This document shows, in pieces, positions 2,549-58,567 of a stretch of DNA of 64,000 nt. A program made the position numbers and the translations under genes. Below the pieces are notes generated by a model. That model did no database searches and had not been told where the DNA came from. It saw only the letters and a program-made list of their open reading frames with translations. Origin of the DNA: Bacteroidia bacterium (lineage in GTDB: Bacteria > Bacteroidota > Bacteroidia > NS11-12g > UBA955); contig JBIISM010000003.1 in assembly GCA_044341025.1 (NCBI GenBank), positions 117,105 to 181,104 of the forward strand. Reading direction: 5' to 3'. Positions within the stretch are counted from its first letter, which is position 1, and every line of letters begins with the position of its first letter.

Positions 2549-3649
2549 ATGATCATTGGAACTGTAAAAGAGACCAAAGCCTCTGAAAATCGCGTCGCTT
2601 TGAGTCCCGAAGTAGTAAAAAACCTAATTAAACAAGGATTTGAATGTTGCATCGAAGCAGGTGCAGGTGTTGCTTCAAATTTCTCAGATGCAGCCTACGA
2701 AACTGCAGGAGCAAAAATCATACAAACAGCTAAAGACGTATGCAATCAATCTAATGTTTTGGTAAAAGTAAATGCACCATCAATTGAGGAGATTGCAAAT
2801 CTTAAGGAGGGCTCTGCATTATTATCCTTTATTTACCATTTAAACAATGCAGATTTAATTTCCCAGTTAAATGCCAAGAGAGTAACTGTATTTTCAATGG
2901 ATGCTATACCGCGTATTTCACGTGCTCAAAGCATGGACGCTTTAAGTTCACAAGCAAACCTCGCAGGGTATAAAGCTGTTATACTTGGTGCTCAGCATTC
3001 TGCTAGAATATTCCCAATGCTAATGACGGCGGCAGGAACCATTACGCCTTCTAAAGTTTTAATCTTTGGCGCAGGCGTTGCTGGTTTGCAAGCCATTGGA
3101 ACAGCGAAACGTTTGGGCGCTGTGGTCGAAGTTACTGATATCAGACCTGAAACCAAAGAACAAGTTGAATCTTTAGGAGGTAAATTCATCAGTTTCGATA
3201 CGGGTGAAGTTAAGATTGAAGGTGGATACGTAAAAGAAACAAGCGAAGATACCCTAAAAAAACAAAGAGAAATATTAGGCAAACATTTAGCTGCGGCAGA
3301 TATTGCAATCACCACTGCCTTAATACCAGGCAAAAAAGCCCCAATATTAATTACTGAAGACATGGTTAAAACCATGAAATTAGGAAGTGTTATTGTTGAT
3401 ATGGCTGTAGAACAAGGTGGAAACTGCGAGATAAGTGAAGCTGGAAAAGTGGTAGTTAAACATGGGGTTAAAATTGTAGGTGAGGTTAATTTGCCTTCAC
3501 AATTGGCTCAAAATGCCAGCGAAAGCTACTCTAAAAATATCTATGCTTTCTTAACCCACTTAGCCAATAAAGATGGTTTTAAATGGGAAATGGAAGAAGA
3601 AATAACCAAAGGAACTCTGATTTGCAAAGAAGGAAACTTACTAAAATAA
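2549..3649 (+). CDS. pntA: NAD(P) transhydrogenase subunit alpha, part 1 (soluble dI domain)
   Basis: 366 aa. MIIGTVKETKASENRVALSPEVV... and VLIFGAGVAGLQAIGTAKRLGAVVEVTD. It is a paralog of the adjacent ald. Followed by a small membrane subunit and pntB. Confidence 0.85.
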   Translation: MIIGTVKETKASENRVALSPEVVKNLIKQGFECCIEAGAGVASNFSDAAYETAGAKIIQTAKDVCNQSNVLVKVNAPSIEEIANLKEGSALLSFIYHLNNADLISQLNAKRVTVFSMDAIPRISRAQSMDALSSQANLAGYKAVILGAQHSARIFPMLMTAAGTITPSKVLIFGAGVAGLQAIGTAKRLGAVVEVTDIRPETKEQVESLGGKFISFDTGEVKIEGGYVKETSEDTLKKQREILGKHLAAADIAITTALIPGKKAPILITEDMVKTMKLGSVIVDMAVEQGGNCEISEAGKVVVKHGVKIVGEVNLPSQLAQNASESYSKNIYAFLTHLANKDGFKWEMEEEITKGTLICKEGNLLK

Positions 3650-3668
3650 ACAATACGAATAATTTATA

Positions 3669-3974
3669 ATGGAAGCCATATTAACCTTTATCTCCAACAA
3701 TCAATTAATGATCTATATGGTCGTTCTTATGATTTTTGTTGGAATTGAATTGATCGAAAAAGTACCGTCTGTACTGCATACCCCATTAATGAGTGGCGCC
3801 AATGCAATCCATGGGGTTGTAATTATAGGTGCTATTATTATAATGGGACAAGCTGAAAGCATATTTGCAATTGTCCTTGGTTTTATAGCCGTTGTGCTTG
3901 GAACACTAAACGTTGTTGGTGGTTTTGTTGTTACCGATAGAATGTTGGATATGTTTAAAAAGAAAAAGAAATGA
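3669..3974 (+). CDS. pntA: NAD(P) transhydrogenase subunit alpha, part 2 (membrane dII segment)
   Basis: 101 aa, all-hydrophobic with 3 TM helices. Positioned between pntAA and pntB. Its stop overlaps the pntB start in an ATGA (3971-3974). Confidence 0.75.
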   Translation: MEAILTFISNNQLMIYMVVLMIFVGIELIEKVPSVLHTPLMSGANAIHGVVIIGAIIIMGQAESIFAIVLGFIAVVLGTLNVVGGFVVTDRMLDMFKKKKK

Positions 3975-5377
3975 AACAGTCAATTTTAGATATAATTTAC
4001 ATGATTGGTGCCGTGGGTTTCATATTCGGCATTAAAATGTTGGGCAATCCTGAAAAAGCTAAAAAAGGAAATCTTATCGCTGCCTTTGGTATGGGCTTGG
4101 CTATTTTTGGTACTATATTTTTATACGAGCACAATGGCAAACCTCTGAATAATTACGTTTGGATTTTCGGTGGTCTAATTGTTGGGACAGTTATAGGAAC
4201 AATGATGGCAAAAAAAGTCAAAATGACTGGAATGCCACAAATGGTGTCTTTCTTCAACGGCATGGGTGGTGCTTGTGCAGCTTTAATCTCCTTGGTAGAA
4301 TTTAATCATTTATCACATGAAGGAGATTTCACTCAAGCGCCTGTATTAAAATTAATCATCATTTTCCTAGGCCTTATTATCGGTTCAATATCTTTTGCCG
4401 GCAGTATGATTGCTTTTGGAAAATTAGATGAGAAGATAAAAGATAAAACCCTACCACTTCAACAAGTAATTAATGTTGGACTAATGGTGGTTTTGTTAGG
4501 AATTGCTTTCGCCGCTTCTTTCGGACTTATCTCAAACCCAATGGTTCTATATTTATTATTGGTTTTGTCATTAATTTACGGCGTGCTATTCGTGATGCCA
4601 ATAGGTGGTGCTGATATGCCAGTGGTAATCTCTTTATTAAACTCCTTCACGGGAGTAGCTGCAGCAATGGGCGGATTTTTATACGACAACAAGGTTATGT
4701 TGTTTGGCGGTATCTTAGTTGGTAGCGCTGGTACATTGTTAACGGTTGTAATGTGTAAAGCCATGAACAGATCTTTAACCAATGTTCTGATTGGTAATTT
4801 TGGTGGCGGATCTGCAGCAGCAGGAGAAGGCAAAGAAATAACAGGAAGTGTTAAAGAAATTAGCAAAACAGACGCTGCTGTTTTAATGAAATACAGCAAG
4901 AAAGTGGTTATAGTGCCTGGTTATGGATTGGCTGTAGCACAAGCTCAGCACGTTTGTCATGAACTTGAACAAGTATTAGAAGAGGAAGGTGTTGAGGTAA
5001 AATATGCCATTCACCCGGTTGCTGGTCGTATGCCTGGTCACATGAATGTATTGCTTGCAGAAAGCAATGTGAGCTACGATAAATTAATTGAAATGGACGA
5101 CATCAACCCAGAATTTAAAACAACCGATGTTGTACTAATTGTTGGTGCAAACGACGTTGTTAATCCAGCAGCTAAAAACGATCCAAGTTCTCCAATATAC
5201 GGCATGCCAATTTTAGAAGTAGAAGACGCTGCCCATACTATTGTTATGAAACGCAGTATGAAAGCTGGTTATGCAGGTATAGAAAATGAACTTTTCTACA
5301 GCAGTAAAAATAGCATGTTGTTTGGAGACGCTAAAAAGACCTTAACTGATTTGGTTACTGAACTTAAAAGTTTGTAA
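3971..5377 (+). CDS. pntB: NAD(P) transhydrogenase subunit beta
   Basis: 468 aa. N-terminal multi-TM region and a C-terminal NADP(H)-binding dIII region (...KVVIVPGYGLAVAQAQH...GANDVVNPAA...). Confidence 0.85.
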   Translation: MKQSILDIIYMIGAVGFIFGIKMLGNPEKAKKGNLIAAFGMGLAIFGTIFLYEHNGKPLNNYVWIFGGLIVGTVIGTMMAKKVKMTGMPQMVSFFNGMGGACAALISLVEFNHLSHEGDFTQAPVLKLIIIFLGLIIGSISFAGSMIAFGKLDEKIKDKTLPLQQVINVGLMVVLLGIAFAASFGLISNPMVLYLLLVLSLIYGVLFVMPIGGADMPVVISLLNSFTGVAAAMGGFLYDNKVMLFGGILVGSAGTLLTVVMCKAMNRSLTNVLIGNFGGGSAAAGEGKEITGSVKEISKTDAAVLMKYSKKVVIVPGYGLAVAQAQHVCHELEQVLEEEGVEVKYAIHPVAGRMPGHMNVLLAESNVSYDKLIEMDDINPEFKTTDVVLIVGANDVVNPAAKNDPSSPIYGMPILEVEDAAHTIVMKRSMKAGYAGIENELFYSSKNSMLFGDAKKTLTDLVTELKSL

Positions 5378-5392
5378 CATTTAAGATATTAC

Positions 5393-5428
5393 AAAAAAGG
5401 CCGATACGAAAGTATTGGCTTTTTTTTA
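5393..5428. terminator. Bidirectional rho-independent terminator serving pntB (+) and the convergent STN-repeat outer-membrane gene (-)
   Basis: aaaaaa-ggccgatac-gaaa-gtattggc-tttttttt. An 8-bp stem (one G-U pair) with a GAAA tetraloop, flanked by an A-run and a T-run. Confidence 0.75.
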
Positions 5429-5449
5429 TACAGCATGTTAAAATTCCAT

Positions 5450-7399
5450 TTATAAAAACCTAATCCCGAACTGAAATCCAGAAAACATTTTCTGTGCAAA
5501 TCTTGCTTCATGTGTCCAAAATGCATCAGCTCCAAAGTTTTTAAAATGCTTGCTGTAATTGACATCATTTTTATCATTTAAAAGATGGTTCAATGATCCA
5601 GAAGCAAATATAGACAAACCTTTGATGATTCTGTATTCTAAACCTAGATCAAGTCTGTTGTGCAAATTCAAATGGTCTGAACGAAAGTCTATAGTCATAT
5701 GCCTTGAACTTAATGCAGCATTGATGTAAAAATGCTTGCTTAATTTGATGTTTGAACCTAAACCATACCCATAGGTGATGATGGTTGCCGAATCAGAATT
5801 TAAACTTTGTGTATTGATTAACGCAATGCTGTGCAATTTCTCCATACCAGAGCGGTAAGCCAATCCGTTTTGTTTGGATTCGTTTAAACTAAATTCTATT
5901 TGATGCAGTCCATTTCTAACAAAATTAAAAATACCGAACATAAATCCATTAACCGTATCGGCAATGTTGACTATACCCAATTGCATGCCTTGCACTTTTC
6001 TCGCTATATTTAAAAACCCTGCCACTTGCATGCCTTTAATTTCATTGGCTACATTCATAAATCCAGCCGCCTGAAACAATTGCGATTTTCCGCCACTTGC
6101 ATTCATAAAACCTGCTACTTGAACCCCTTCGGTCCCTTTACTTAAATTCATAAACCCAGCAGCTTGTATGCCATGAATGCGTCTTGTTACATTCATAAAT
6201 CCTGCACCTTGTATGCCTTCCATTTCCATGGTGTTTAAATTCATAAATCCAGCCATTTGTATTCCATGCACAAATCCGTGGTTCATGTTGTAAAAACCTG
6301 CACATTGAATGCCATTCATGCTGCTTAAATTGTGGTTAAAAAACCCTCCAAATTGAGCTCCGTTGACTTCGCCTCCTACAAGGTTACCAAAACCAGAAAA
6401 CTGTGCCCCATGCATGTTTGATTTTAACACATTCAAAAAGCCTCCGAATTCTGCGCCATCCAAACTGCCATTATATCCTCCAATCAAATTAATCGACAAT
6501 TTATTTTGCACCAATCCACTTAAAATACCATTGGTTCCAATACCTGGCAACAAACTAATTTGCCAATCGCGCTGAAATGAATCGCGTATGTTTTTCTCAT
6601 TAAGCTTTTGCACTGTACCCACAAACCATTTCCCCACGCGGGTATCTTCAACTTTAATTTTCTTGCTTACATTATTGGTATCACTCCATGCAATAAGAGT
6701 TTGAGTGCTGCTGTCTGTATTTAAAGTATCTGTAATGATAGGAGAAGCCACGAATGGGCTGTCAGTTTCGGTTTGTAATTCAGAAGGAAAAACAGACTGC
6801 ATACTCATGTGCATTTCTATTAAACCGTTGTTCTGAAATTTCACATTGATCAGAGTATCTCTATAGTCTTTCTTCGTATACTTAACGTAAATGCTTGGTG
6901 ACTTACATACAACGGCCAAACGGTAGTAACCATAATCAGAGGAAACTGTACCAGAAAGCGTTTGCTTTTCATAAATACTACTGCCAACGATTCCGTCTCC
7001 ACTTTGTGAATTTCTAATATACCCAGTAATTAAATAATTGTATTTATTAGACTGGCCTGTTTTATCATCTATCTGAGTGGTTTTAGCTACTGGTTTTTTC
7101 TGTAAAATTAAATGGGTTCCTATTTGTTGGTATACAATCTCATGGTTGAATAGCTGATCTAAAACTTCTCGAACACTGCGGTTTTCAGCCATTATACTTA
7201 CTATTTTATTTCCCTTTAATACATTGCTGTTGTAGGAGAAATGAAAGTTAGCAGTTTCTTCAATAATGCCAAGTGTTCTTGACATGGTCTGCTTAATAAC
7301 CTTGATTGATATTTTTCGCTCTAATATGGCTATATTACTTTGAGCAAAAAGCCCATCGAAATGGCTAAGCAAAGTCAAGCAAATGATTAATAGTCTCAT
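5450..7399 (-). CDS. Outer-membrane protein: signal peptide, STN (secretin/TonB N-terminal) signalling domain, CarbopepD_reg-like domain, ~210-aa tandem G-x-Q-x-A-G-F-x-N repeat region, C-terminal beta-barrel ending in Phe
   Basis: The track ORF 5450..7450 starts at an upstream Met. The signal peptide (MRLLIICLTLLSHFDGLFAQS) begins at the Met at 7399, whose ATG overlaps the FecR stop as ATGA. STN-like N-terminus: NIAILERKISIKVIKQTMSRTLGIIEETANFHFSYN. Then ITGYIRNSQSGDGIVGSSIYEK...YGYYRL, then at least 10 repeats (GIQAAGFMN, GIQMAGFMN, GVQVAGFMN ...). The C-terminus alternates hydrophobic residues and ends ...GFQFGIRFL. Confidence 0.6.
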   Translation of the reverse strand: MRLLIICLTLLSHFDGLFAQSNIAILERKISIKVIKQTMSRTLGIIEETANFHFSYNSNVLKGNKIVSIMAENRSVREVLDQLFNHEIVYQQIGTHLILQKKPVAKTTQIDDKTGQSNKYNYLITGYIRNSQSGDGIVGSSIYEKQTLSGTVSSDYGYYRLAVVCKSPSIYVKYTKKDYRDTLINVKFQNNGLIEMHMSMQSVFPSELQTETDSPFVASPIITDTLNTDSSTQTLIAWSDTNNVSKKIKVEDTRVGKWFVGTVQKLNEKNIRDSFQRDWQISLLPGIGTNGILSGLVQNKLSINLIGGYNGSLDGAEFGGFLNVLKSNMHGAQFSGFGNLVGGEVNGAQFGGFFNHNLSSMNGIQCAGFYNMNHGFVHGIQMAGFMNLNTMEMEGIQGAGFMNVTRRIHGIQAAGFMNLSKGTEGVQVAGFMNASGGKSQLFQAAGFMNVANEIKGMQVAGFLNIARKVQGMQLGIVNIADTVNGFMFGIFNFVRNGLHQIEFSLNESKQNGLAYRSGMEKLHSIALINTQSLNSDSATIITYGYGLGSNIKLSKHFYINAALSSRHMTIDFRSDHLNLHNRLDLGLEYRIIKGLSIFASGSLNHLLNDKNDVNYSKHFKNFGADAFWTHEARFAQKMFSGFQFGIRFL

Positions 7400-8364
7400 G
7401 GTGTACACCCCTTTCCTTCTATTATATAACAATTTTTCTTTTGATCCCAACGCACCTCAACATTCATGGTTGCTTTGATGACTTCCAATACATTCTCCAA
7501 TTTTTCATTTTCAAAATTTGCACTCAGCTTACAGTCTTTTAATTCTTTTGCCAATACAATGGGTCTATCGCTATAATATTGATTCAAACTTTCTACAACT
7601 TCATTCAATGACTGTTCGTTAAAATGTAAGGACTTGCTCACATAAGAAAATGCGTTCTCGTCTTTTATTTCTTCCTCTTTAATAAGATGCGATTGAAACT
7701 GATAATTTACAGCTTGATTGGCCACTAAAATACGTTCTCCATCTTGGCAACTGAATTTTACCTTACCTTCTTTCACTCTAACTTGAATACTTGAAGCAGA
7801 TTTTCGCAATTCAAATTGAGTCCCGAGAACTGTTATCCTTGCTTGTCCTAGCTCAATTACAAATGGTTTAGATGCATCCTTAGCTACTTTAAAAAAGGCA
7901 GTTCCATTTTCCAATACCACGGTGCGCTGCGACTGAATAAATTCTTCTGGAAAAGAGAAATTTCCTTCTCTCAATATGACTTCAGTACCATCTCCCAATT
8001 TGTATTGAATATTTTGTTGCTTGTTGGCACTTAAATGCAGCATTGGTTCTTGTTTATACACATTGAACAAAGCAAGTGAAACACCGAGTAACAATATCAA
8101 AGATGCAGCAGCAAGCCAAACCTTGCTTAGTGGAAATACCTTTGTATTTTTTTCTTGGCTAATTTGCGCATTTACCATGCTCCAAGCTTTGTCGACATCA
8201 ATTTTCCCAAGTGGATTAATGGCTTTCGAATTGCTCCAAATGCGTTCATAATCTCGAAATATTTTTTCATTTTCCTCGGATGAATTTATCCAATTCTGTA
8301 TAAGGGCATTTTCGTGTGCCTCTGTTTCACCGGCTAGGTGCTTTACAATTAATTCTTCGTTCAT
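7396..8364 (-). CDS. FecR-family anti-sigma factor (transmembrane sensor)
   Basis: 322 aa. The N-terminal ~80 aa has the FecR pattern (ELIVKHLAGETEAHENALIQNWINSSEENEKIFRDYERIW). One TM helix (VWLAAASLILLLGVSLALFNVY). Sits directly downstream of an ECF sigma gene. Confidence 0.75.
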   Translation of the reverse strand: MNEELIVKHLAGETEAHENALIQNWINSSEENEKIFRDYERIWSNSKAINPLGKIDVDKAWSMVNAQISQEKNTKVFPLSKVWLAAASLILLLGVSLALFNVYKQEPMLHLSANKQQNIQYKLGDGTEVILREGNFSFPEEFIQSQRTVVLENGTAFFKVAKDASKPFVIELGQARITVLGTQFELRKSASSIQVRVKEGKVKFSCQDGERILVANQAVNYQFQSHLIKEEEIKDENAFSYVSKSLHFNEQSLNEVVESLNQYYSDRPIVLAKELKDCKLSANFENEKLENVLEVIKATMNVEVRWDQKKNCYIIEGKGCTP

Positions 8365-8368
8365 GTTT

Positions 8369-8932
8369 TTACTTTTTGATAAAATAAATAATAACCAGTA
8401 GTATGGTTAAAAAGTCTGACAGATTGTGTCGCATTAACTTCAATGCTTTACCCATTTGGTTTTCTACTGTCTTAATCGAAATATTCAAAACATCTGCAAT
8501 TTCTCTGTACTTTAAATCTTCGAATCTGCTCATACTAAATATCAATTTACATTGCTCTGGCAGTGTATTCAAAGCCTTTTCTATTCGTGTTTCTAGCTCT
8601 TTTAAGCTTTGATTTGACTGTATTTCGTTTTCTTGAATTTGTGACTGCTTCATGTGTAAATATTCCTCCTTAATTTTTTGATGTTTAATGGTGTTTAATG
8701 CTGAATGGTAAACCGATTTATACAGGTAAGATTTTAACGAGGTACTGATATGTATCTTCTCTCTTTTCTCCCACAATTGCACAAACACCAATTGAACAAT
8801 TTCCTCCGATTCATCTGTATCTTTTAACCACATGGAAGCATAACGACAAAGTCCTTCGTAATACTGCTTAAATACGGTTTCAAATTCAGAATGGTTCTTA
8901 AAATAATTCATTGCTTCTGTTTTCTCACACAA
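8369..8932 (-). CDS. RNA polymerase ECF-type sigma-70 factor
   Basis: 187 aa. Region-2-like segment FETVFKQYYEGLCRYASMWLKD...VQLVFVQLWEKRE and a region-4 HTH (LKYREIADVLNISIKTVENQMGKALKLMR). There is a 4-nt gap before the FecR gene. Confidence 0.8.
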   Translation of the reverse strand: MCEKTEAMNYFKNHSEFETVFKQYYEGLCRYASMWLKDTDESEEIVQLVFVQLWEKREKIHISTSLKSYLYKSVYHSALNTIKHQKIKEEYLHMKQSQIQENEIQSNQSLKELETRIEKALNTLPEQCKLIFSMSRFEDLKYREIADVLNISIKTVENQMGKALKLMRHNLSDFLTILLVIIYFIKK

Positions 8933-8940
8933 ATATATTA

Positions 8941-9156
8941 CTATTCTGTTCCATTAAGTTCAATGCGGAATACACTGTCTTCATACAATTCAACATCTGC
9001 TGAAATTGAGAGTGAAATACCCGTAAAGCTGCTGCTCGATCTTGTGTTGCTAACATTATCGCCTTCCCCTTTTATCCAATGTCTGTCTTTGCTGCAAGAA
9101 ACTGCGCTTAACATGATGATGAATAAAATGCTGAAATAAAAAATTACTTGTTTCAT
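8941..9156 (-). CDS. Small hypothetical lipoprotein, 71 aa
   Basis: Signal peptide plus lipobox (MKQVIFYFSILFIIMLSAVSCSKD). Wedged between the TonB receptor and the sigma-factor gene. No recognisable domain. Confidence 0.35.
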   Translation of the reverse strand: MKQVIFYFSILFIIMLSAVSCSKDRHWIKGEGDNVSNTRSSSSFTGISLSISADVELYEDSVFRIELNGTE

Positions 9157-9177
9157 ATATGTTTATTTATTGTTGTG

Positions 9178-11520
9178 TTAAAATTCAAGTTTGTAACTAA
9201 AAACTGGGATTAATGGGGTTTGATACCAAGTCTTAACGGCCCCATTATTAACGTCGTAATAGGTGCCTCCAATATTTTTCCTATTGCTCGCATTTTGTAT
9301 GTCTAAACTCCAAATGCTGTTGTATTTCGCATGGTTGATGCGGTAAGAAAATTTCAAATCTGTTCTAAAATAATTTGCCAGTTGTATGCTAAATGGTTTT
9401 GTTTCGTCGTACATAGTTGTTTGGTACAAACGAGACATATTCGCATCCACAGGTGTTTGTCTAAATCCACCATACCAAGTGGTTTTAATGTTGAAGCCAA
9501 ACAATTTTTTACCCCCTTTTATTTTGAATTCTTTCCCGCCTGTAAAAGTCATTGCATGTTTTCCATTGAAGCGGGTGTTATACGATTGACCAGTCATTGT
9601 TTGATACTCACTTTGATACAACGATGCTGAAAGTATGTAATACAAACCCTTGTTTAAAAAACGTTCAGCCGTTAACTCAATTCCATAATTTCTGCCCTTT
9701 CCTTTATTTACCAAAGCTTCATTTACCAAACCAAAATTCAAGTTCAAGATTGAAAAAGTGCTGTTTGCTGCAAGTCCAATTGGAATATTGAACAAGTGCT
9801 GATAATAGGCTTCTAACTTAATTCTTGTTTGACTCTTAAAAACCATTTCATATCCCGCAACAAAATGATGGGCCTTACTCAATCCAAGATTTTTATTTGG
9901 ATAGTGCTTTTCGCCATTTTCATTTTGCAACTGCGTAAAATAAACACCTGGCAATTGTAACTGACTGTGCAAACCATATCCGAAAGTCGCAGTTTGTTTG
10001 GAATTAAGCTCATAGCGCGCAGATAACCTCGGCTCTAAGGAACTTGTCTTATTTAAGCCTAAAAAGATGCCATGAGCGCCCGCAAAGACGTTCAGCTTGC
10101 TATTGAACCTCCATTTAACTTGTGAAAATGCTTGGGCATAAAAAGCTTGATCTTTGCTGTCTAAAAATGTCCTCAAGCGACCATTGCTATCCAAATCTCT
10201 TTGTTCAGTTTTAAAAGCCCAATAATTGGCAATGAATCCAGATCTTAAATGAAGCTTATTGCTAATTTTATGGTTAAGTGTGCTGCTCCAAGCCAATTTA
10301 TTATTGCCAATATTGTTTTTCCAATGGGTGTAAAAATGGGTGTAATCCTTTTCTAAATATTCCCCTTTATCGGTGATGGTATTAGAGGAATACAAGACAA
10401 CAGTTCTCAATGTATTTCTTTTATTGATGTTCAATAAATGGGTCATGCCAGATGCAATGGTGTTGCTGCCATAAAAAATATCGTAACGGTCAGATTGGAA
10501 TTTCCATAATACTGAGTCCTTTTTAGCACTTTGCAGTTGTGCACTAATTCCGGCAAAGCCAAAAAAAGCGATGTTTCCGATTCTAGATTTTGGTAAGGCA
10601 ATATTATATGCTAGGTCTTGAAACAAGGTAGAACTTTCTCCTATTTTTATGCCGAGTTGCTTGATGATTCCAAGAGTAGAATATCTGTAATTTACCAAAT
10701 AGCTTCCGCCCTTTTTACTTAAAGGCCCTTCGGTTGCCAAATCCAATCCTAAAAATCCGGCCTGTAGAGTGTATTCTCTTTTCTTACTGTTGCCTTTGCG
10801 CAAACGCAAATCGAAGACACCGCTTAAAGCATTTCCATATTCTGCAGCAAAAGCACTGCTCATAAAATCTGAATTCCCCAATAGCTGTGCACTCAATATT
10901 GAAATACCACCGCCACTGCCATTAAAACTAGAAAAATGATTTGGTCCCGGGATATCAATGCCCTCCATTCTCCACAACAGTCCAGTTGGGGAATTGCCTC
11001 TTATAACAATGGTATTATTGCCGTCATCGGCTCCAATTACACCTGCAAAGGATGTTGCCATGCGGGCTGGATCATTAACTGCTGCTGCAAATTTTTGTGT
11101 TTCTTCTACCGAAAATGTGCGCGTACTAACCGTTGCCATTTCATTCAATGGCTTTATTTTACTGGCTTTTCCACGCACAACAAAAGCAGATTTTTCTTTA
11201 ATTTGTTCTTCCAATTGAAAATTAACCACCAATTCTTTGCCACTCGTTAATAGTAAATTGGGAATACTCTGTTCGGCATAAACTTTATGTGAAGCCGTTA
11301 TTCTTATGCGACCAACAAGAACATGCTTAAATTCATAATTGCCATTTGAGTCGCTTAAAACAAAATTACTGCTATCTCCATTTAAGTATAGTTTGACTCC
11401 TTCAATGGGGCTAATTAAATTTTTATCGCTAACAGTGCCTTTTATATTTTGTGTGAAGTTTTGCGACCAGGCATCAAAACTGCTCAAAACCAAAATCAAA
11501 ATAAGTGTGTATTTCATCAT
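9178..11520 (-). CDS. TonB-dependent outer-membrane receptor (SusC/RagA-like). It has CarbopepD_reg and plug domains but no STN domain
   Basis: 780 aa. Signal peptide, then IKGTVSDKNLISPIEGVKLYLNG...GNYEFKHVLVGRIRI (CarbopepD_reg), then a plug region (TVSTRTF...IVIRGNSPTGLLWRMEGIDI), a long beta-barrel, and a C-terminal ...FSYKLEF. Confidence 0.8.
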   Translation of the reverse strand: MMKYTLILILVLSSFDAWSQNFTQNIKGTVSDKNLISPIEGVKLYLNGDSSNFVLSDSNGNYEFKHVLVGRIRITASHKVYAEQSIPNLLLTSGKELVVNFQLEEQIKEKSAFVVRGKASKIKPLNEMATVSTRTFSVEETQKFAAAVNDPARMATSFAGVIGADDGNNTIVIRGNSPTGLLWRMEGIDIPGPNHFSSFNGSGGGISILSAQLLGNSDFMSSAFAAEYGNALSGVFDLRLRKGNSKKREYTLQAGFLGLDLATEGPLSKKGGSYLVNYRYSTLGIIKQLGIKIGESSTLFQDLAYNIALPKSRIGNIAFFGFAGISAQLQSAKKDSVLWKFQSDRYDIFYGSNTIASGMTHLLNINKRNTLRTVVLYSSNTITDKGEYLEKDYTHFYTHWKNNIGNNKLAWSSTLNHKISNKLHLRSGFIANYWAFKTEQRDLDSNGRLRTFLDSKDQAFYAQAFSQVKWRFNSKLNVFAGAHGIFLGLNKTSSLEPRLSARYELNSKQTATFGYGLHSQLQLPGVYFTQLQNENGEKHYPNKNLGLSKAHHFVAGYEMVFKSQTRIKLEAYYQHLFNIPIGLAANSTFSILNLNFGLVNEALVNKGKGRNYGIELTAERFLNKGLYYILSASLYQSEYQTMTGQSYNTRFNGKHAMTFTGGKEFKIKGGKKLFGFNIKTTWYGGFRQTPVDANMSRLYQTTMYDETKPFSIQLANYFRTDLKFSYRINHAKYNSIWSLDIQNASNRKNIGGTYYDVNNGAVKTWYQTPLIPVFSYKLEF

Positions 11521-11573
11521 TACACCCTTAAGACAATCGAAATTGGTTTTACCCCTATGCCAAAATAAAAAAA

Positions 11574-13199
11574 TTATTCGCGCTCTATTCTCAACAAATA
11601 ATTCGCCTCAATAAAAGCGTATAAATCAAAGCGATTATCCAATTCAATTACAATTGGTTTATCAGAAACTACAATACCAATGACTTCACCATTGGTCAAT
11701 TTAATGTTTAATGGAAGTTTCAAATCTTTAAGATCCGACTCCAAACGTATGCTATAGCTTATGTTGCCATTGTTTAATATGCTTTGTTTAATTTCCAATT
11801 CAGGTATAGATTTTTTATATAAATACTGCTTGAAAAATAGATCCCAATTATACCTTGTTTTTTTATTAAAGAATTGAACGGTCTCTTCTGTATTAACAAT
11901 CTTATGAAAATATATCGAATTCATTTCCTTTAAACAAGCAAACCACAACGAATCATTATTTAAAATACTGCGCATGGTATGCAGCATCCATGTGCCTTTA
12001 TAATAAATATCACTATCGGTTCTGCCATGGTAAAAAACACCTCTTGGTCCTTGCATTGGATATTTAGATACAATCTTTTTTTTCTGTTCGCTAAGGTATT
12101 CAATTGCTCTTGTTTTATCTACCTGATATTCCATATACAAGGCTTCTGAATAGGTGGTAAAACTCTCGTGTATCCACATATCAGCAGCATCAGATGCCGT
12201 AATGCTGTTGCCGAACCATTCGTGACCACTCTCATGTATGATGATGAAATCAAATCCATAATTATTGTTGTTATAGTTGTTTCCATAAGCGATACAACTT
12301 TGATGTTCCATTCCCCAATAAGGTGTCTCTACCAATTTGTATGAATCGTCTTTAAATGGATATTGACCAAAGTAATACTCAAATGCCTCTAGCATGCCGT
12401 GGACCTGCAAAAAATGCTTTTCTGCTGCAGCTTGGTTATAATCTAATACATAATAGGAAAGCGGCAGTTTATTGATACCAGAAAAAGTATCTACAATGTT
12501 GACATACCGCCCAACATTGATGCTGATACTGTAGTTGTTAATTGGATTAACGACTCTCCAATGAAATGCTTTAAAAGCGCTGTCAACAATTTTTTCATCG
12601 ATTAATTTACCATTGGAAACACCCGTGAGGTCATTCGGTACAATTAATGTAATGTCTGCGCCTTCTGCCTCATCGCTCCAATGGTCTTTGCAAGGCAGCC
12701 AAGCTGATGCTCCCAAACCTTCACAGGCCAAGCCAACCCAATCGTATCCATTATTGTCTTTACGCCATACAAAGCCTCCATCCCAAGGGGCAAGTTTAGC
12801 CTCTAAAGGTTTTCCTGAAAAATAAAGCAGCAAATTATGACTTGAATTTTTGAGTAACCCCCCTGGAAAATCAAACAACACGATATTGCCTTTTCGCTTA
12901 AATGCAATTGGCTTGCCCAAATACTCAGCGCTATCAAGGTTCATAGATTTCGAATAATCCAATTGAATTTTTGATGAGGCTTCCAACATTTTAAACTCAA
13001 TGGCATTACTTCCTGAAATAAATCTTTCAATCGGTTTTATTTTTACCTCTATGTCATAATGTATAACATCAAAGCAAGAGCGCTCAAATACCAATTTGCC
13101 AATATCTTTCCTTTTTGCTTTGGCATGCAGAGACTGCACATTTACAAACGAAATGAAAAACAATAAAAATGAAAAACAATGGTTTAAGGTGCGCATCAA
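11574..13199 (-). CDS. M1-family zinc metallopeptidase (aminopeptidase N-like), secreted
   Basis: 541 aa. HExxH-(18)-E zincin signature in FIIIHESGHEWFGNSITASDAADMWIHESFTTY, a GMEH-like exopeptidase motif (YWGMEHQS), and an N-terminal signal peptide. Confidence 0.75.
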   Translation of the reverse strand: MMRTLNHCFSFLLFFISFVNVQSLHAKAKRKDIGKLVFERSCFDVIHYDIEVKIKPIERFISGSNAIEFKMLEASSKIQLDYSKSMNLDSAEYLGKPIAFKRKGNIVLFDFPGGLLKNSSHNLLLYFSGKPLEAKLAPWDGGFVWRKDNNGYDWVGLACEGLGASAWLPCKDHWSDEAEGADITLIVPNDLTGVSNGKLIDEKIVDSAFKAFHWRVVNPINNYSISINVGRYVNIVDTFSGINKLPLSYYVLDYNQAAAEKHFLQVHGMLEAFEYYFGQYPFKDDSYKLVETPYWGMEHQSCIAYGNNYNNNNYGFDFIIIHESGHEWFGNSITASDAADMWIHESFTTYSEALYMEYQVDKTRAIEYLSEQKKKIVSKYPMQGPRGVFYHGRTDSDIYYKGTWMLHTMRSILNNDSLWFACLKEMNSIYFHKIVNTEETVQFFNKKTRYNWDLFFKQYLYKKSIPELEIKQSILNNGNISYSIRLESDLKDLKLPLNIKLTNGEVIGIVVSDKPIVIELDNRFDLYAFIEANYLLRIERE

Positions 13200-14596: not shown

Positions 14597-16243
14597 TTAA
14601 TAATCAAACCTACGCATTTTCTTATTGTTTATATTTAGGATCTGAGAATATTTCTTTAAAACCTCAATAGTTTTCGAGAAAACACCTTCTTCACGGTTTA
14701 TAATTCTAGATCGGCCTTTTTCGCCAAACAATCGATAAGCCAGCGCTGCTTTTAAATGCTTGCGTATAATGTCGGCGGTTTTGCTTGAATACTTTAACCC
14801 GCGCAAATAAGGAATTTTTTTGGCCACTGCTATAAAACGAACCACATCTGCTTGTGAGATGCTGAACTCATTTTGAAACACTATTTCATTCTTTAAAAAC
14901 TTAGTCTCATTCTTTAAAATTTCAGACATAAAGTCCAATACATAAATGTCAAATATTCGACTATAAAACAAGCCTGGCATGAGCATTTCTATTTCTGTAC
15001 TATCTGGAATGGTGTCTCGCAACACAACATCAGGCCTTATGCCACCTCCAGGAGTCAACAAACGGCCATTCTTGCTGAAAAACTCCTTTTTAATTGTAGA
15101 ATCTAAATTGGGGTTTAGCGTGTCTCTACTCTGATCACGCACATATATTTCATTCCTGTATTTCTCGATATCCTTAGTGTATGCCTTTTGAATACTTCGT
15201 CCACTTGGTGTGTAGTATCTTGCAATGGTTAAGCGCAACATGGCTCCATCAGACAATCTAAATGGTTCTTGAACCAAGCCCTTGCCAAATGAACGGTTAC
15301 CTATAATTACCGCTCGGTCGTTGTCCTGCAAAGCGCCTGCTAAAATCTCACTGGCAGAAGCGGTGTTGTGGTTAATCAACAATGCCAGTTTTCCATCTTT
15401 AAATCCCCCATTGCCATCAGCTCGGTAATAATTTCTATTTCTGTGGTAACCGAAGGTGTATGAAATCACTTCATCCTTTTGCAAGAATTCATTAGCAATA
15501 GCAGAAGCTTCACTCAATAGGCCTCCTCCATTGTTGCGAAGATCTAAAATCAAATCTTTCATTCCAGCAGCCTTTAATGCATTCATAGATTTTAAAAACT
15601 CAGAATGTGTATTGCTGCTAAAACGTTCAAGCCTTATATAGCCAAGCGATTTGTTAACCATGTAAAAAACTTCTGAACTGTTCATTACAATTTGCTCTCG
15701 TGGCACCGCAAAGTCTAAATATTGGTTCTTACTTCGGCGGTATACTTTTATGCTTAATTTACTTCTACCATCCCCTTGGATGGCCTCTTGTATCTCGGTG
15801 CTACTCATTGAATCTGTTAGCTTCACTTTCCCTGCAAACAACAAACGGTCGCCGGCCATTATTCCAGCTTTTTGCGCTGGTCCACCCTCACTGGTGTTAA
15901 ATACAAATAAAGTGTCGCTAAATTGAATATACTCTATGCCCAATCCCAAATAATTGCCTCGAATCTGACGGTTGTTAATCTCGCTTAATTGTGCAGGGAT
16001 ATAGGCACTGTGCGGGTCGAGCTGAGAGAGCAAATAATCAATGGCATTTTCCTCTAGTAAATCAATCCTTGTGCTGTCTACATAATCTTGATTAATGATG
16101 TCAAATATTTGAGAAAATTTGTCCTTTTTCTCTTTATTGATATTCATCCCACAGAATAAACCAATGGCCAAAAACAAAGCTAAAATCAAAGGACTTAAAG
16201 CTCGGCTTTTTGAATTTTGAATTTCTGGCCTTTCAGTTGACAT
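14597..16243 (-). CDS. S41-family carboxyl-terminal processing peptidase (Ctp/Prc-like)
   Basis: 548 aa. PDZ-like GLGIEYIQFSDTLFVFNTSEGGPAQKAGIMAGDRL, and the S41 catalytic region LLINHNTASASEILAGALQDNDRAVIIGNRSFGKGLVQE. Confidence 0.8.
   Translation of the reverse strand: MSTERPEIQNSKSRALSPLILALFLAIGLFCGMNINKEKKDKFSQIFDIINQDYVDSTRIDLLEENAIDYLLSQLDPHSAYIPAQLSEINNRQIRGNYLGLGIEYIQFSDTLFVFNTSEGGPAQKAGIMAGDRLLFAGKVKLTDSMSSTEIQEAIQGDGRSKLSIKVYRRSKNQYLDFAVPREQIVMNSSEVFYMVNKSLGYIRLERFSSNTHSEFLKSMNALKAAGMKDLILDLRNNGGGLLSEASAIANEFLQKDEVISYTFGYHRNRNYYRADGNGGFKDGKLALLINHNTASASEILAGALQDNDRAVIIGNRSFGKGLVQEPFRLSDGAMLRLTIARYYTPSGRSIQKAYTKDIEKYRNEIYVRDQSRDTLNPNLDSTIKKEFFSKNGRLLTPGGGIRPDVVLRDTIPDSTEIEMLMPGLFYSRIFDIYVLDFMSEILKNETKFLKNEIVFQNEFSISQADVVRFIAVAKKIPYLRGLKYSSKTADIIRKHLKAALAYRLFGEKGRSRIINREEGVFSKTIEVLKKYSQILNINNKKMRRFDY

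Positions 16244-58495: not shown

Positions 58496-58567
<72 letters not shown>

Follow-up and report, generated by a model that had tools for sequence, protein, structure and literature searches.

An STN domain on a predicted non-transporter outer-membrane protein in a common sigma/anti-sigma cassette of Bacteroidota

In cell-surface signaling of the FecIRA type, represented by FecA, FpvA, and PupB and by the SusC-like transducers of Bacteroidota, an extracytoplasmic function (ECF) sigma factor is paired with a FecR-type anti-sigma factor that carries a periplasmic C-terminal domain, an STN-bearing outer-membrane protein is encoded directly after the anti-sigma gene, and a TonB-dependent transporter is the regulated target. 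In models of this signaling, the transporter's own plug is taken to change conformation and thereby to pull or release the STN domain. Here, we analyze a locus in a 64,000-nt stretch of DNA from a Bacteroidia bacterium (GCA_044341025.1, contig JBIISM010000003.1, positions 117,105 to 181,104), hereafter the window, in which all of these elements are found, with the transporter as the putative regulated target, but in which the STN domain is on one protein and the putative plug with its predicted 22-strand barrel on another. The STN carrier, a 649-amino-acid protein referred to below as the STN protein, has an N-terminus like that of SusC-type transducers, with STN followed by a CarbopepD_reg (NTE) domain, and then, unlike them, a predicted solenoid and small barrel. 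The transporter, for its part, keeps an NTE of its own that is not detectably similar to that of the STN protein. The cassette further differs from the SusC-type loci of Bacteroidota in that it contains no SusD-like gene and includes a DUF2807 lipoprotein. As STN, plug, and barrel are divided between two polypeptides, neither protein is a TonB-dependent transducer as that class is defined.

The only described precedent that we found for an STN domain on a non-transporter is VreA, from the VreA-VreI-VreR (PUMA3) system of Pseudomonas aeruginosa, a periplasmic protein of 23 kDa that is mostly soluble and whose C-terminal domain is TolA/TonB-like (PMC2729926). Like VreA, the protein described here is an STN "receptor" that lacks a 22-strand barrel and is predicted not to be a transporter. 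Unlike VreA, it has 649 residues with an NTE, a solenoid, and a predicted outer-membrane barrel, is genetically linked to a dedicated transporter, and comes from a different phylum; no TolA/TonB-like domain was found in it. Our literature search turned up a paper on a DUF2807 adhesin but no description of the five-gene cassette, and the NCBI name for the STN-protein family records only the domain pair. On balance, we favor the view that the locus is a self-contained five-gene cell-surface-signaling cassette in which the STN function is contributed in trans by an outer-membrane protein dedicated to it, the five partners being the ECF sigma factor, the FecR-type anti-sigma factor, the outer-membrane-anchored STN protein, the STN-less transporter, and a DUF2807 beta-helix lipoprotein.

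Domain content and predicted folds of the STN protein and the transporter

The six minus-strand genes listed in a preliminary description of the locus were recovered in the same order and at the same positions, namely those for an M1 peptidase, the transporter, a remnant of a DUF2807 gene, the sigma factor, FecR, and the STN protein (coordinates below are window positions, and these genes and the features within and between them are on the minus strand). The gene for the STN protein occupies 5450..7399, and its true initiation codon, the ATG at 7399, shares the sequence ATGA with the stop codon of the FecR gene.

The STN protein matched the Pfam STN model (PF07660) over all 52 model positions with 24.1 bits (E=3e-5), which is below the cut-off of 28.4; its STN domain comprises residues 29-101 (nt 7097-7315). 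A match at E<=1e-3 was obtained for 29 of 31 diverse family members, the best reaching 1e-11, and most of the 120 best homologues of the protein carry a precomputed PF07660 match. The 780-amino-acid transporter gave no STN match even at E<=0.1, and none was present among the best 120 of its more than 7,700 homologues. Since STN matches are found in the family of the STN protein and are absent from the transporter and these homologues, the observation in the preliminary description that STN domain and TonB-dependent transporter are on different polypeptides holds.

An AlphaFold2 model of the STN protein, built from 103 homologues, had a mean predicted local distance difference test score (pLDDT) of 90.6 and placed, in order, a signal peptide, the STN domain, the NTE, a disordered linker, and a continuous all-beta region (residues 275-649). 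Foldseek searches with this model matched N0/STN-type domains, those of PilQ (N0) and DotD. The transthyretin-like CarbopepD_reg/NTE domain spans residues 120-200 (nt 6800-7042) and is followed by the linker at residues ~205-245 (213-244 in the model), which contains a conserved D-[ST]. The all-beta region consists of a predicted beta-solenoid of 15-16-residue GxQxAGFxN repeats, running from residue 275 to ~495 (nt 5915-6577), and a predicted outer-membrane barrel of ~8 strands at residues ~498-649 (nt 5453-5908) that matches OprF, NspA, and OmpA in fold comparisons. A sequence-profile search of the PDB recovered only the NTE domain of this protein and returned nothing for the solenoid. Because the model has a solenoid and a small barrel, and no plug with a 22-strand barrel, the STN protein appears not to be a transporter, in agreement with the preliminary description, which had placed the STN domain on a non-transporter outer-membrane protein.

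Should both ends of the barrel face the periplasm, as is usual, the solenoid, NTE, and STN domains would all be periplasmic. In approximately 70% of family members, D-[ST] followed by hydrophobic residues occurs directly after the NTE, and, as this is the position of the TonB box in SusC-type transducers, we tentatively read it as a TonB box, in which case TonB may act on the STN protein. The family is large: at 50% identity, 1,327 clusters match with E<=1e-30, and 3,452 when the limit is relaxed to E<=1e-10. Among other repeat proteins, the LA_2272-type surface repeat proteins (NCBIfam NF047436) match the STN protein below the cut-off. These and the solenoids of the YadA/UspA1 type and of autotransporters differ from it in that those families have no described STN domain, NTE, or FecR linkage, and in that its barrel is predicted to be small and monomeric.

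The transporter (9178..11520) matched CarboxypepD_reg (E=2e-11) and, weakly, Plug (E=0.008; 17.1 bits, with the cut-off at 23.9), while some of its homologues match PF00593 and some pass PF07715. Its layout comprises a signal peptide, the CarboxypepD_reg (NTE) domain, a TonB-box-like SAFVVRG that was read from the sequence only, a putative plug, and a barrel of ~22 strands. In an AlphaFold2 model built from 64 homologues (pLDDT 75.8, with the barrel at ~85), the NTE was the only domain before the plug, and Foldseek matched the model to FptA, BauA, FhuA, and FpvA at E values of 1e-20 to 1e-17 over ~600 columns. As with the STN protein, a sequence-profile search of the PDB recovered only the NTE domain and returned nothing for the barrel or plug. 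The more than 7,700 homologues share 45-50% identity across Bacteroidota orders. These results imply that the 780-amino-acid protein is a TonB-dependent transporter with a 22-strand barrel fold, divergent in sequence yet very conserved within Bacteroidota.

We also considered whether the two proteins derive from recent fission of a single transducer gene. Each has its own NTE, and no pairwise similarity between the two NTE domains was detectable, indicating that the arrangement is not the product of a simple gene fission, and this explanation was rejected.

Composition of the cassette across Bacteroidota

Conservation of the cassette was assessed in 41 genome loci seeded with the STN protein, using a profile from 15 sequences, and 80 metagenome loci seeded with the transporter, all annotated with the window's proteins by tblastn and jackhmmer. 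The genes for sigma factor, FecR, and STN protein were contiguous in that order almost everywhere in the loci examined, with FecR directly upstream and on the same strand for 64 of 67 STN-protein genes. From the transporter side, the STN protein was also present in 51 of the 57 loci with enough flanking DNA.

The transporter gene, by comparison with this fixed core, was placed upstream, downstream, or on the opposite strand, depending on the lineage. Common orders were sigma-FecR-STN-transporter-DUF2807 and sigma-FecR-STN-DUF2807-transporter, for example in L043 and L045, whose called genes belong to the same Pfam families as the cassette. The order found in the window, transporter-DUF2807-sigma-FecR-STN, recurred in L002, L005-L012, L016-L019, L021, L022, L048, L050, and L051, and a divergent-strand version was present in L106. 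The arrangement in the window, which the preliminary description had regarded as unusual, is therefore one permutation of a very common cassette, the usual order being sigma factor, FecR, STN protein, and transporter. Gene neighborhoods across dozens of distant Bacteroidota loci thus support a functional link between the STN-protein and transporter genes, and, because the linkage of transporter and module survives rearrangement, they point to selection on the linkage rather than shared ancestry of one arrangement.

Niabella has a version of the locus without the transporter, in which a second, STN-less paralogue of the solenoid/barrel part is found together with DUF2807 instead. In Niabella aurantiaca (L029, 8460-13544), the genes are those for the sigma factor, FecR, an STN protein of 577 amino acids, a solenoid/barrel paralogue of 338 amino acids with no Pfam match, and DUF2807, and the same transporter-less variant occurs in L025-L028, L038, and L040.

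The DUF2807 gene was present in 19 of 24 long loci seeded with the STN protein. At the corresponding place in the window, the preliminary description had listed a lipoprotein of 71 amino acids. In L002, a near relative whose STN protein is 91% identical to that of the window, the same open reading frame (ORF) has 244 codons and encodes a DUF2807/GIN-domain lipoprotein (PF10988, E=7.5e-42). DNA alignment with L002 indicated that ~545 bp are deleted in the window's gene, with the junction between 8951 and 8950. The same deletion is carried by an independent JGI contig (L046) that is 99% identical to the window, and the deletion is thus a real variant and not an assembly error. Judging from this alignment, the 71-codon ORF (8941..9156) is a pseudogene, the 5' remnant of the gene for the 244-amino-acid lipoprotein.

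The two regulatory genes have clear assignments. The sigma factor (8369..8911) has 180 amino acids when counted from the ATG at 8911, the likely start within the listed ORF of 8932..8369, and matches TIGR02985 (E=4.6e-50) as well as Sigma70_r2 and r4_2. The 322-amino-acid FecR protein (7396..8364) matches PF04773 (E=3e-15) and PF16344 (E=3.5e-12) and has one transmembrane segment, with its FecR domain and its FecR_C domain (residues 246-314) in the periplasm. Elsewhere in the 64-kb window, none of the cassette genes has a paralogue, and Rfam returned no RNA element in the cassette region; the sole Rfam match in the window is a tRNA gene at 58496-58567 (minus strand).

Several neighboring features were recorded. 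The pntA/pntB NAD(P) transhydrogenase genes (2549-5377 on the plus strand and 1269-2381 on the minus strand) mark the boundary of the cassette, where they converge on the end of the STN-protein gene, and an alanine-dehydrogenase/PNT-like gene lies beyond them; in L002, ~6 kb of additional DNA separates the STN-protein gene from pntB. A 62-amino-acid ORF in a different frame (5389-5577, minus strand), overlapping the STN-protein gene at its 3' end, is probably not a gene, as its conservation reaches only as far as the overlapping STN-protein gene. Three genes upstream of the cassette, a C-terminal processing peptidase of family S41 (Prc/CtpA type, PDZ-containing) is encoded at 14597-16243 (minus strand), and this peptidase gene is conserved beside the cassette only in the near relatives L002 and L017. 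In Pseudomonas, site-1 cleavage of FecR-type anti-sigma factors is carried out by Prc.

Candidate promoters of the cassette

In all 16 of 16 loci with the window's gene order, a nearly invariant motif, TAGGGGTA-N15-(T)GTCWTA, precedes the transporter ATG. The window's copy, the ECF-type promoter candidate GGGGTAAAACCAATTTCGATTGTCTTA (11529..11555; family consensus TAGGGGTA-N15-GTCWTA), ends 8 nt before the transporter ATG and lies within the 53-nt spacer that follows the M1 stop codon. When GGGGTA-N15-GTCWTA was searched against the 64-kb window, this site (11555..11529) was the only match, also when one mismatch was tolerated. In 1.71 Mb of non-redundant related loci, 59 exact matches were found versus 0.34 expected from base composition, an enrichment of ~170-fold, and 51 of these were 25-200 nt upstream of the starts of cassette genes (transporter, 22; sigma factor, 14; DUF2807, 14; FecR, 1). 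Positions that the search had left free were also invariant, with TA before GGGG at 57 of 57 sites and T before GTC at 56 of 57.

The motif is bipartite and asymmetric, its two halves always 15 nt apart, and its end lies a median of 8.5 nt from the transporter ATG, so that the transporter mRNA would be almost leaderless. Sitting as it does before the sigma gene and its neighbors, it resembles an autoregulated ECF promoter, and we infer that it is a promoter read by the cassette's sigma factor. For the transporter, the lack of an STN domain and the presence of an ECF-type motif before its gene agree with the proposal in the preliminary description of an STN-less receptor under control of the sigma factor, whereas for the M1 peptidase, which that description had placed in the same unit, no motif was found before the gene. 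In L008 (1014-1351), a second copy of the motif precedes a 100-amino-acid duplicate of the transporter's 5' end, followed by three inserted genes and then the intact transporter, an arrangement that marks a partial duplication or the scar of an insertion.

Loci of the window's lineage have no ECF-type motif before the sigma gene. Instead, TATATTTG (8930..8937), which matches TAnnTTTG, is located 18 nt before the sigma ATG, and an exact TAnnTTTG is found at this position in 14 of 16 loci with the window's gene order. TAnnTTTG is reportedly the -7 box of Bacteroidetes housekeeping promoters. Given that this element replaces the ECF-type motif before the sigma gene, the sensing operon is probably constitutive in the window's lineage, and only the transporter, and formerly also DUF2807, would be sigma-dependent. 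A scan for E. coli-type promoters and terminators returned fewer sites than shuffled sequence and is uninformative for a Bacteroidota genome.

Proposed signal relay and alternative explanations

Based on the data presented above, FecR would hold the sigma factor at the inner membrane, and the STN domain of the 649-amino-acid protein would contact the periplasmic FecR_C domain. The STN protein would be co-produced with FecR and fixed to the outer membrane by its small barrel, from which, given the usual barrel topology, the solenoid, NTE, and STN domains would hang into the periplasm. A signal would then lead to release of the sigma factor and to transcription of the transporter and DUF2807 genes from the TAGGGGTA-N15-GTCWTA promoter, and in most lineages the sigma factor would also transcribe its own operon. 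The most likely signal would be the state of the partner transporter or of the DUF2807 complex, which the STN protein would pass on in trans, and we prefer a relay from the transporter because of the tight linkage of the two genes. In a published RNA-seq table for Parabacteroides, two genes that are three locus tags apart, one listed as "STN and carboxypeptidase regulatory-like" and the other as CarboxypepD_reg, both decreased ~4-fold (PMC12893687), a joint decrease that offers weak and incidental support for co-regulation.

Several points weigh against this interpretation. The contacts that would join the STN protein to FecR and to the transporter are ones that we infer, and the motif was assigned to the sigma factor by its position. 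The window's own STN and Plug matches both score under the Pfam cut-offs, and the plug region of the transporter model is of low confidence (pLDDT <50). Niabella loci have the sigma factor, FecR, STN protein, and DUF2807 with no such transporter within 10 kb, the transporter is present in only 12 of the 24 long loci seeded with the STN protein, and six transporter loci lack the sigma/FecR/STN module; the STN protein and the transporter are therefore not obligate partners. Moreover, since the window's strain has lost DUF2807, this partner must be dispensable at least there.

Because the transporter is not always present, the main alternative is that the STN protein is an autonomous envelope sensor, which we consider unlikely, albeit well short of negligible. 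According to this explanation, a rigid, outer-membrane-anchored solenoid and long linker would tether FecR across the periplasm, the cue would be the integrity or spacing of the outer membrane and periplasm or a periplasmic ligand, and the transporter would not be reported on, so that it and DUF2807 would be outputs only. The fixed core of sigma factor, FecR, and STN protein, around which the positions of the transporter and DUF2807 vary, is consistent with such a sensor, as are the Niabella-type loci in which the transporter is missing, and with the usual barrel topology the predicted architecture has no surface-exposed ligand-binding part. Against it stand the co-occurrence measured from the transporter side (51/57) and the finding that the two genes are most often adjacent, and the 45-50% identity of the transporter across orders is more in keeping with a shared, specific substrate than with a generic response to stress.

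A further explanation, put forward in the preliminary description, is that the locus forms a peptide-sensing and peptide-uptake regulon, in which the secreted M1 aminopeptidase (13199..11574; 541 amino acids, Pfam Peptidase_M1_N and Peptidase_M1) would make peptides that the transporter imports, with the sigma factor controlling both genes. The peptidase gene is directly upstream of the transporter on the same strand, at a distance of 53 nt, in the window, L002, and L017, and an unrelated M1 peptidase is encoded divergently beside the sigma gene in two closely related Niabella loci. However, this second peptidase is not found in other Niabella loci, direct adjacency to the cassette is confined to the window, L002, and L017, and the M1 and transporter genes of L006 have three unrelated genes between them, including one on the opposite strand. 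The M1 gene is absent from the flanks of L005, L008, L011, L016, and L018 and of nearly all of the ~80 transporter-seeded loci. Additionally, a scan of the 64-kb window revealed no motif before the M1 gene, and the spacer between the two genes contains a separate promoter-like motif for the transporter. With neither a motif nor conserved adjacency, we rejected a functional tie between the M1 peptidase and the cassette and read the peptidase as an unrelated neighbor whose adjacency reflects regional synteny and chance. As the peptidase lies outside the unit, a peptide regulon is without basis and very improbable. The preliminary interpretation is thus retained with respect to the split of STN and transporter, which proved to be general, and the linkage to the transporter, but not for the peptidase, the small lipoprotein, or peptides as the cue.

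Equally doubtful is an autotransporter-like adhesin, with the solenoid as a surface passenger exported through the C-terminal barrel, DUF2807 as a fellow adhesin, and STN as a vestige without signaling, since the barrel is predicted to have ~8 strands (~150 residues) with no linker helix before it in the model, and not the 12 strands and linker helix of a classical (type Va) autotransporter, STN and NTE are N-terminal to the solenoid and would need export too, the gene invariably follows that of FecR and often overlaps it, and STN is conserved in 29/31 members.

A cassette this common (>1,300 clusters at 50% identity) in which STN is carried by a predicted non-transporter provides a test of the assumption that signaling depends on the transporter's own plug. 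It also offers five defined partners for genetics, with cultivable carriers in Algoriphagus, Spirosoma, Larkinella, Niabella, and Parabacteroides (for example, NQ542_RS07340-07355) and the window's strain as a natural variant that lacks the DUF2807 partner, and its candidate promoter motif would allow regulon prediction in any genome that carries the cassette. More tentatively, it is possible that the STN protein is a new kind of trans-acting adaptor, whose solenoid arm spans the periplasm to hold FecR and enables a transporter that is itself signaling-incompetent, together with DUF2807, or else that it mechanically senses how the envelope is spaced or what state the outer membrane is in. If so, cell-surface signaling would not need an STN domain on the transporter itself, and thousands of "orphan" sigma/FecR pairs in Bacteroidota would gain a partner and, via TAGGGGTA-N15-GTCWTA, a predictable regulon.

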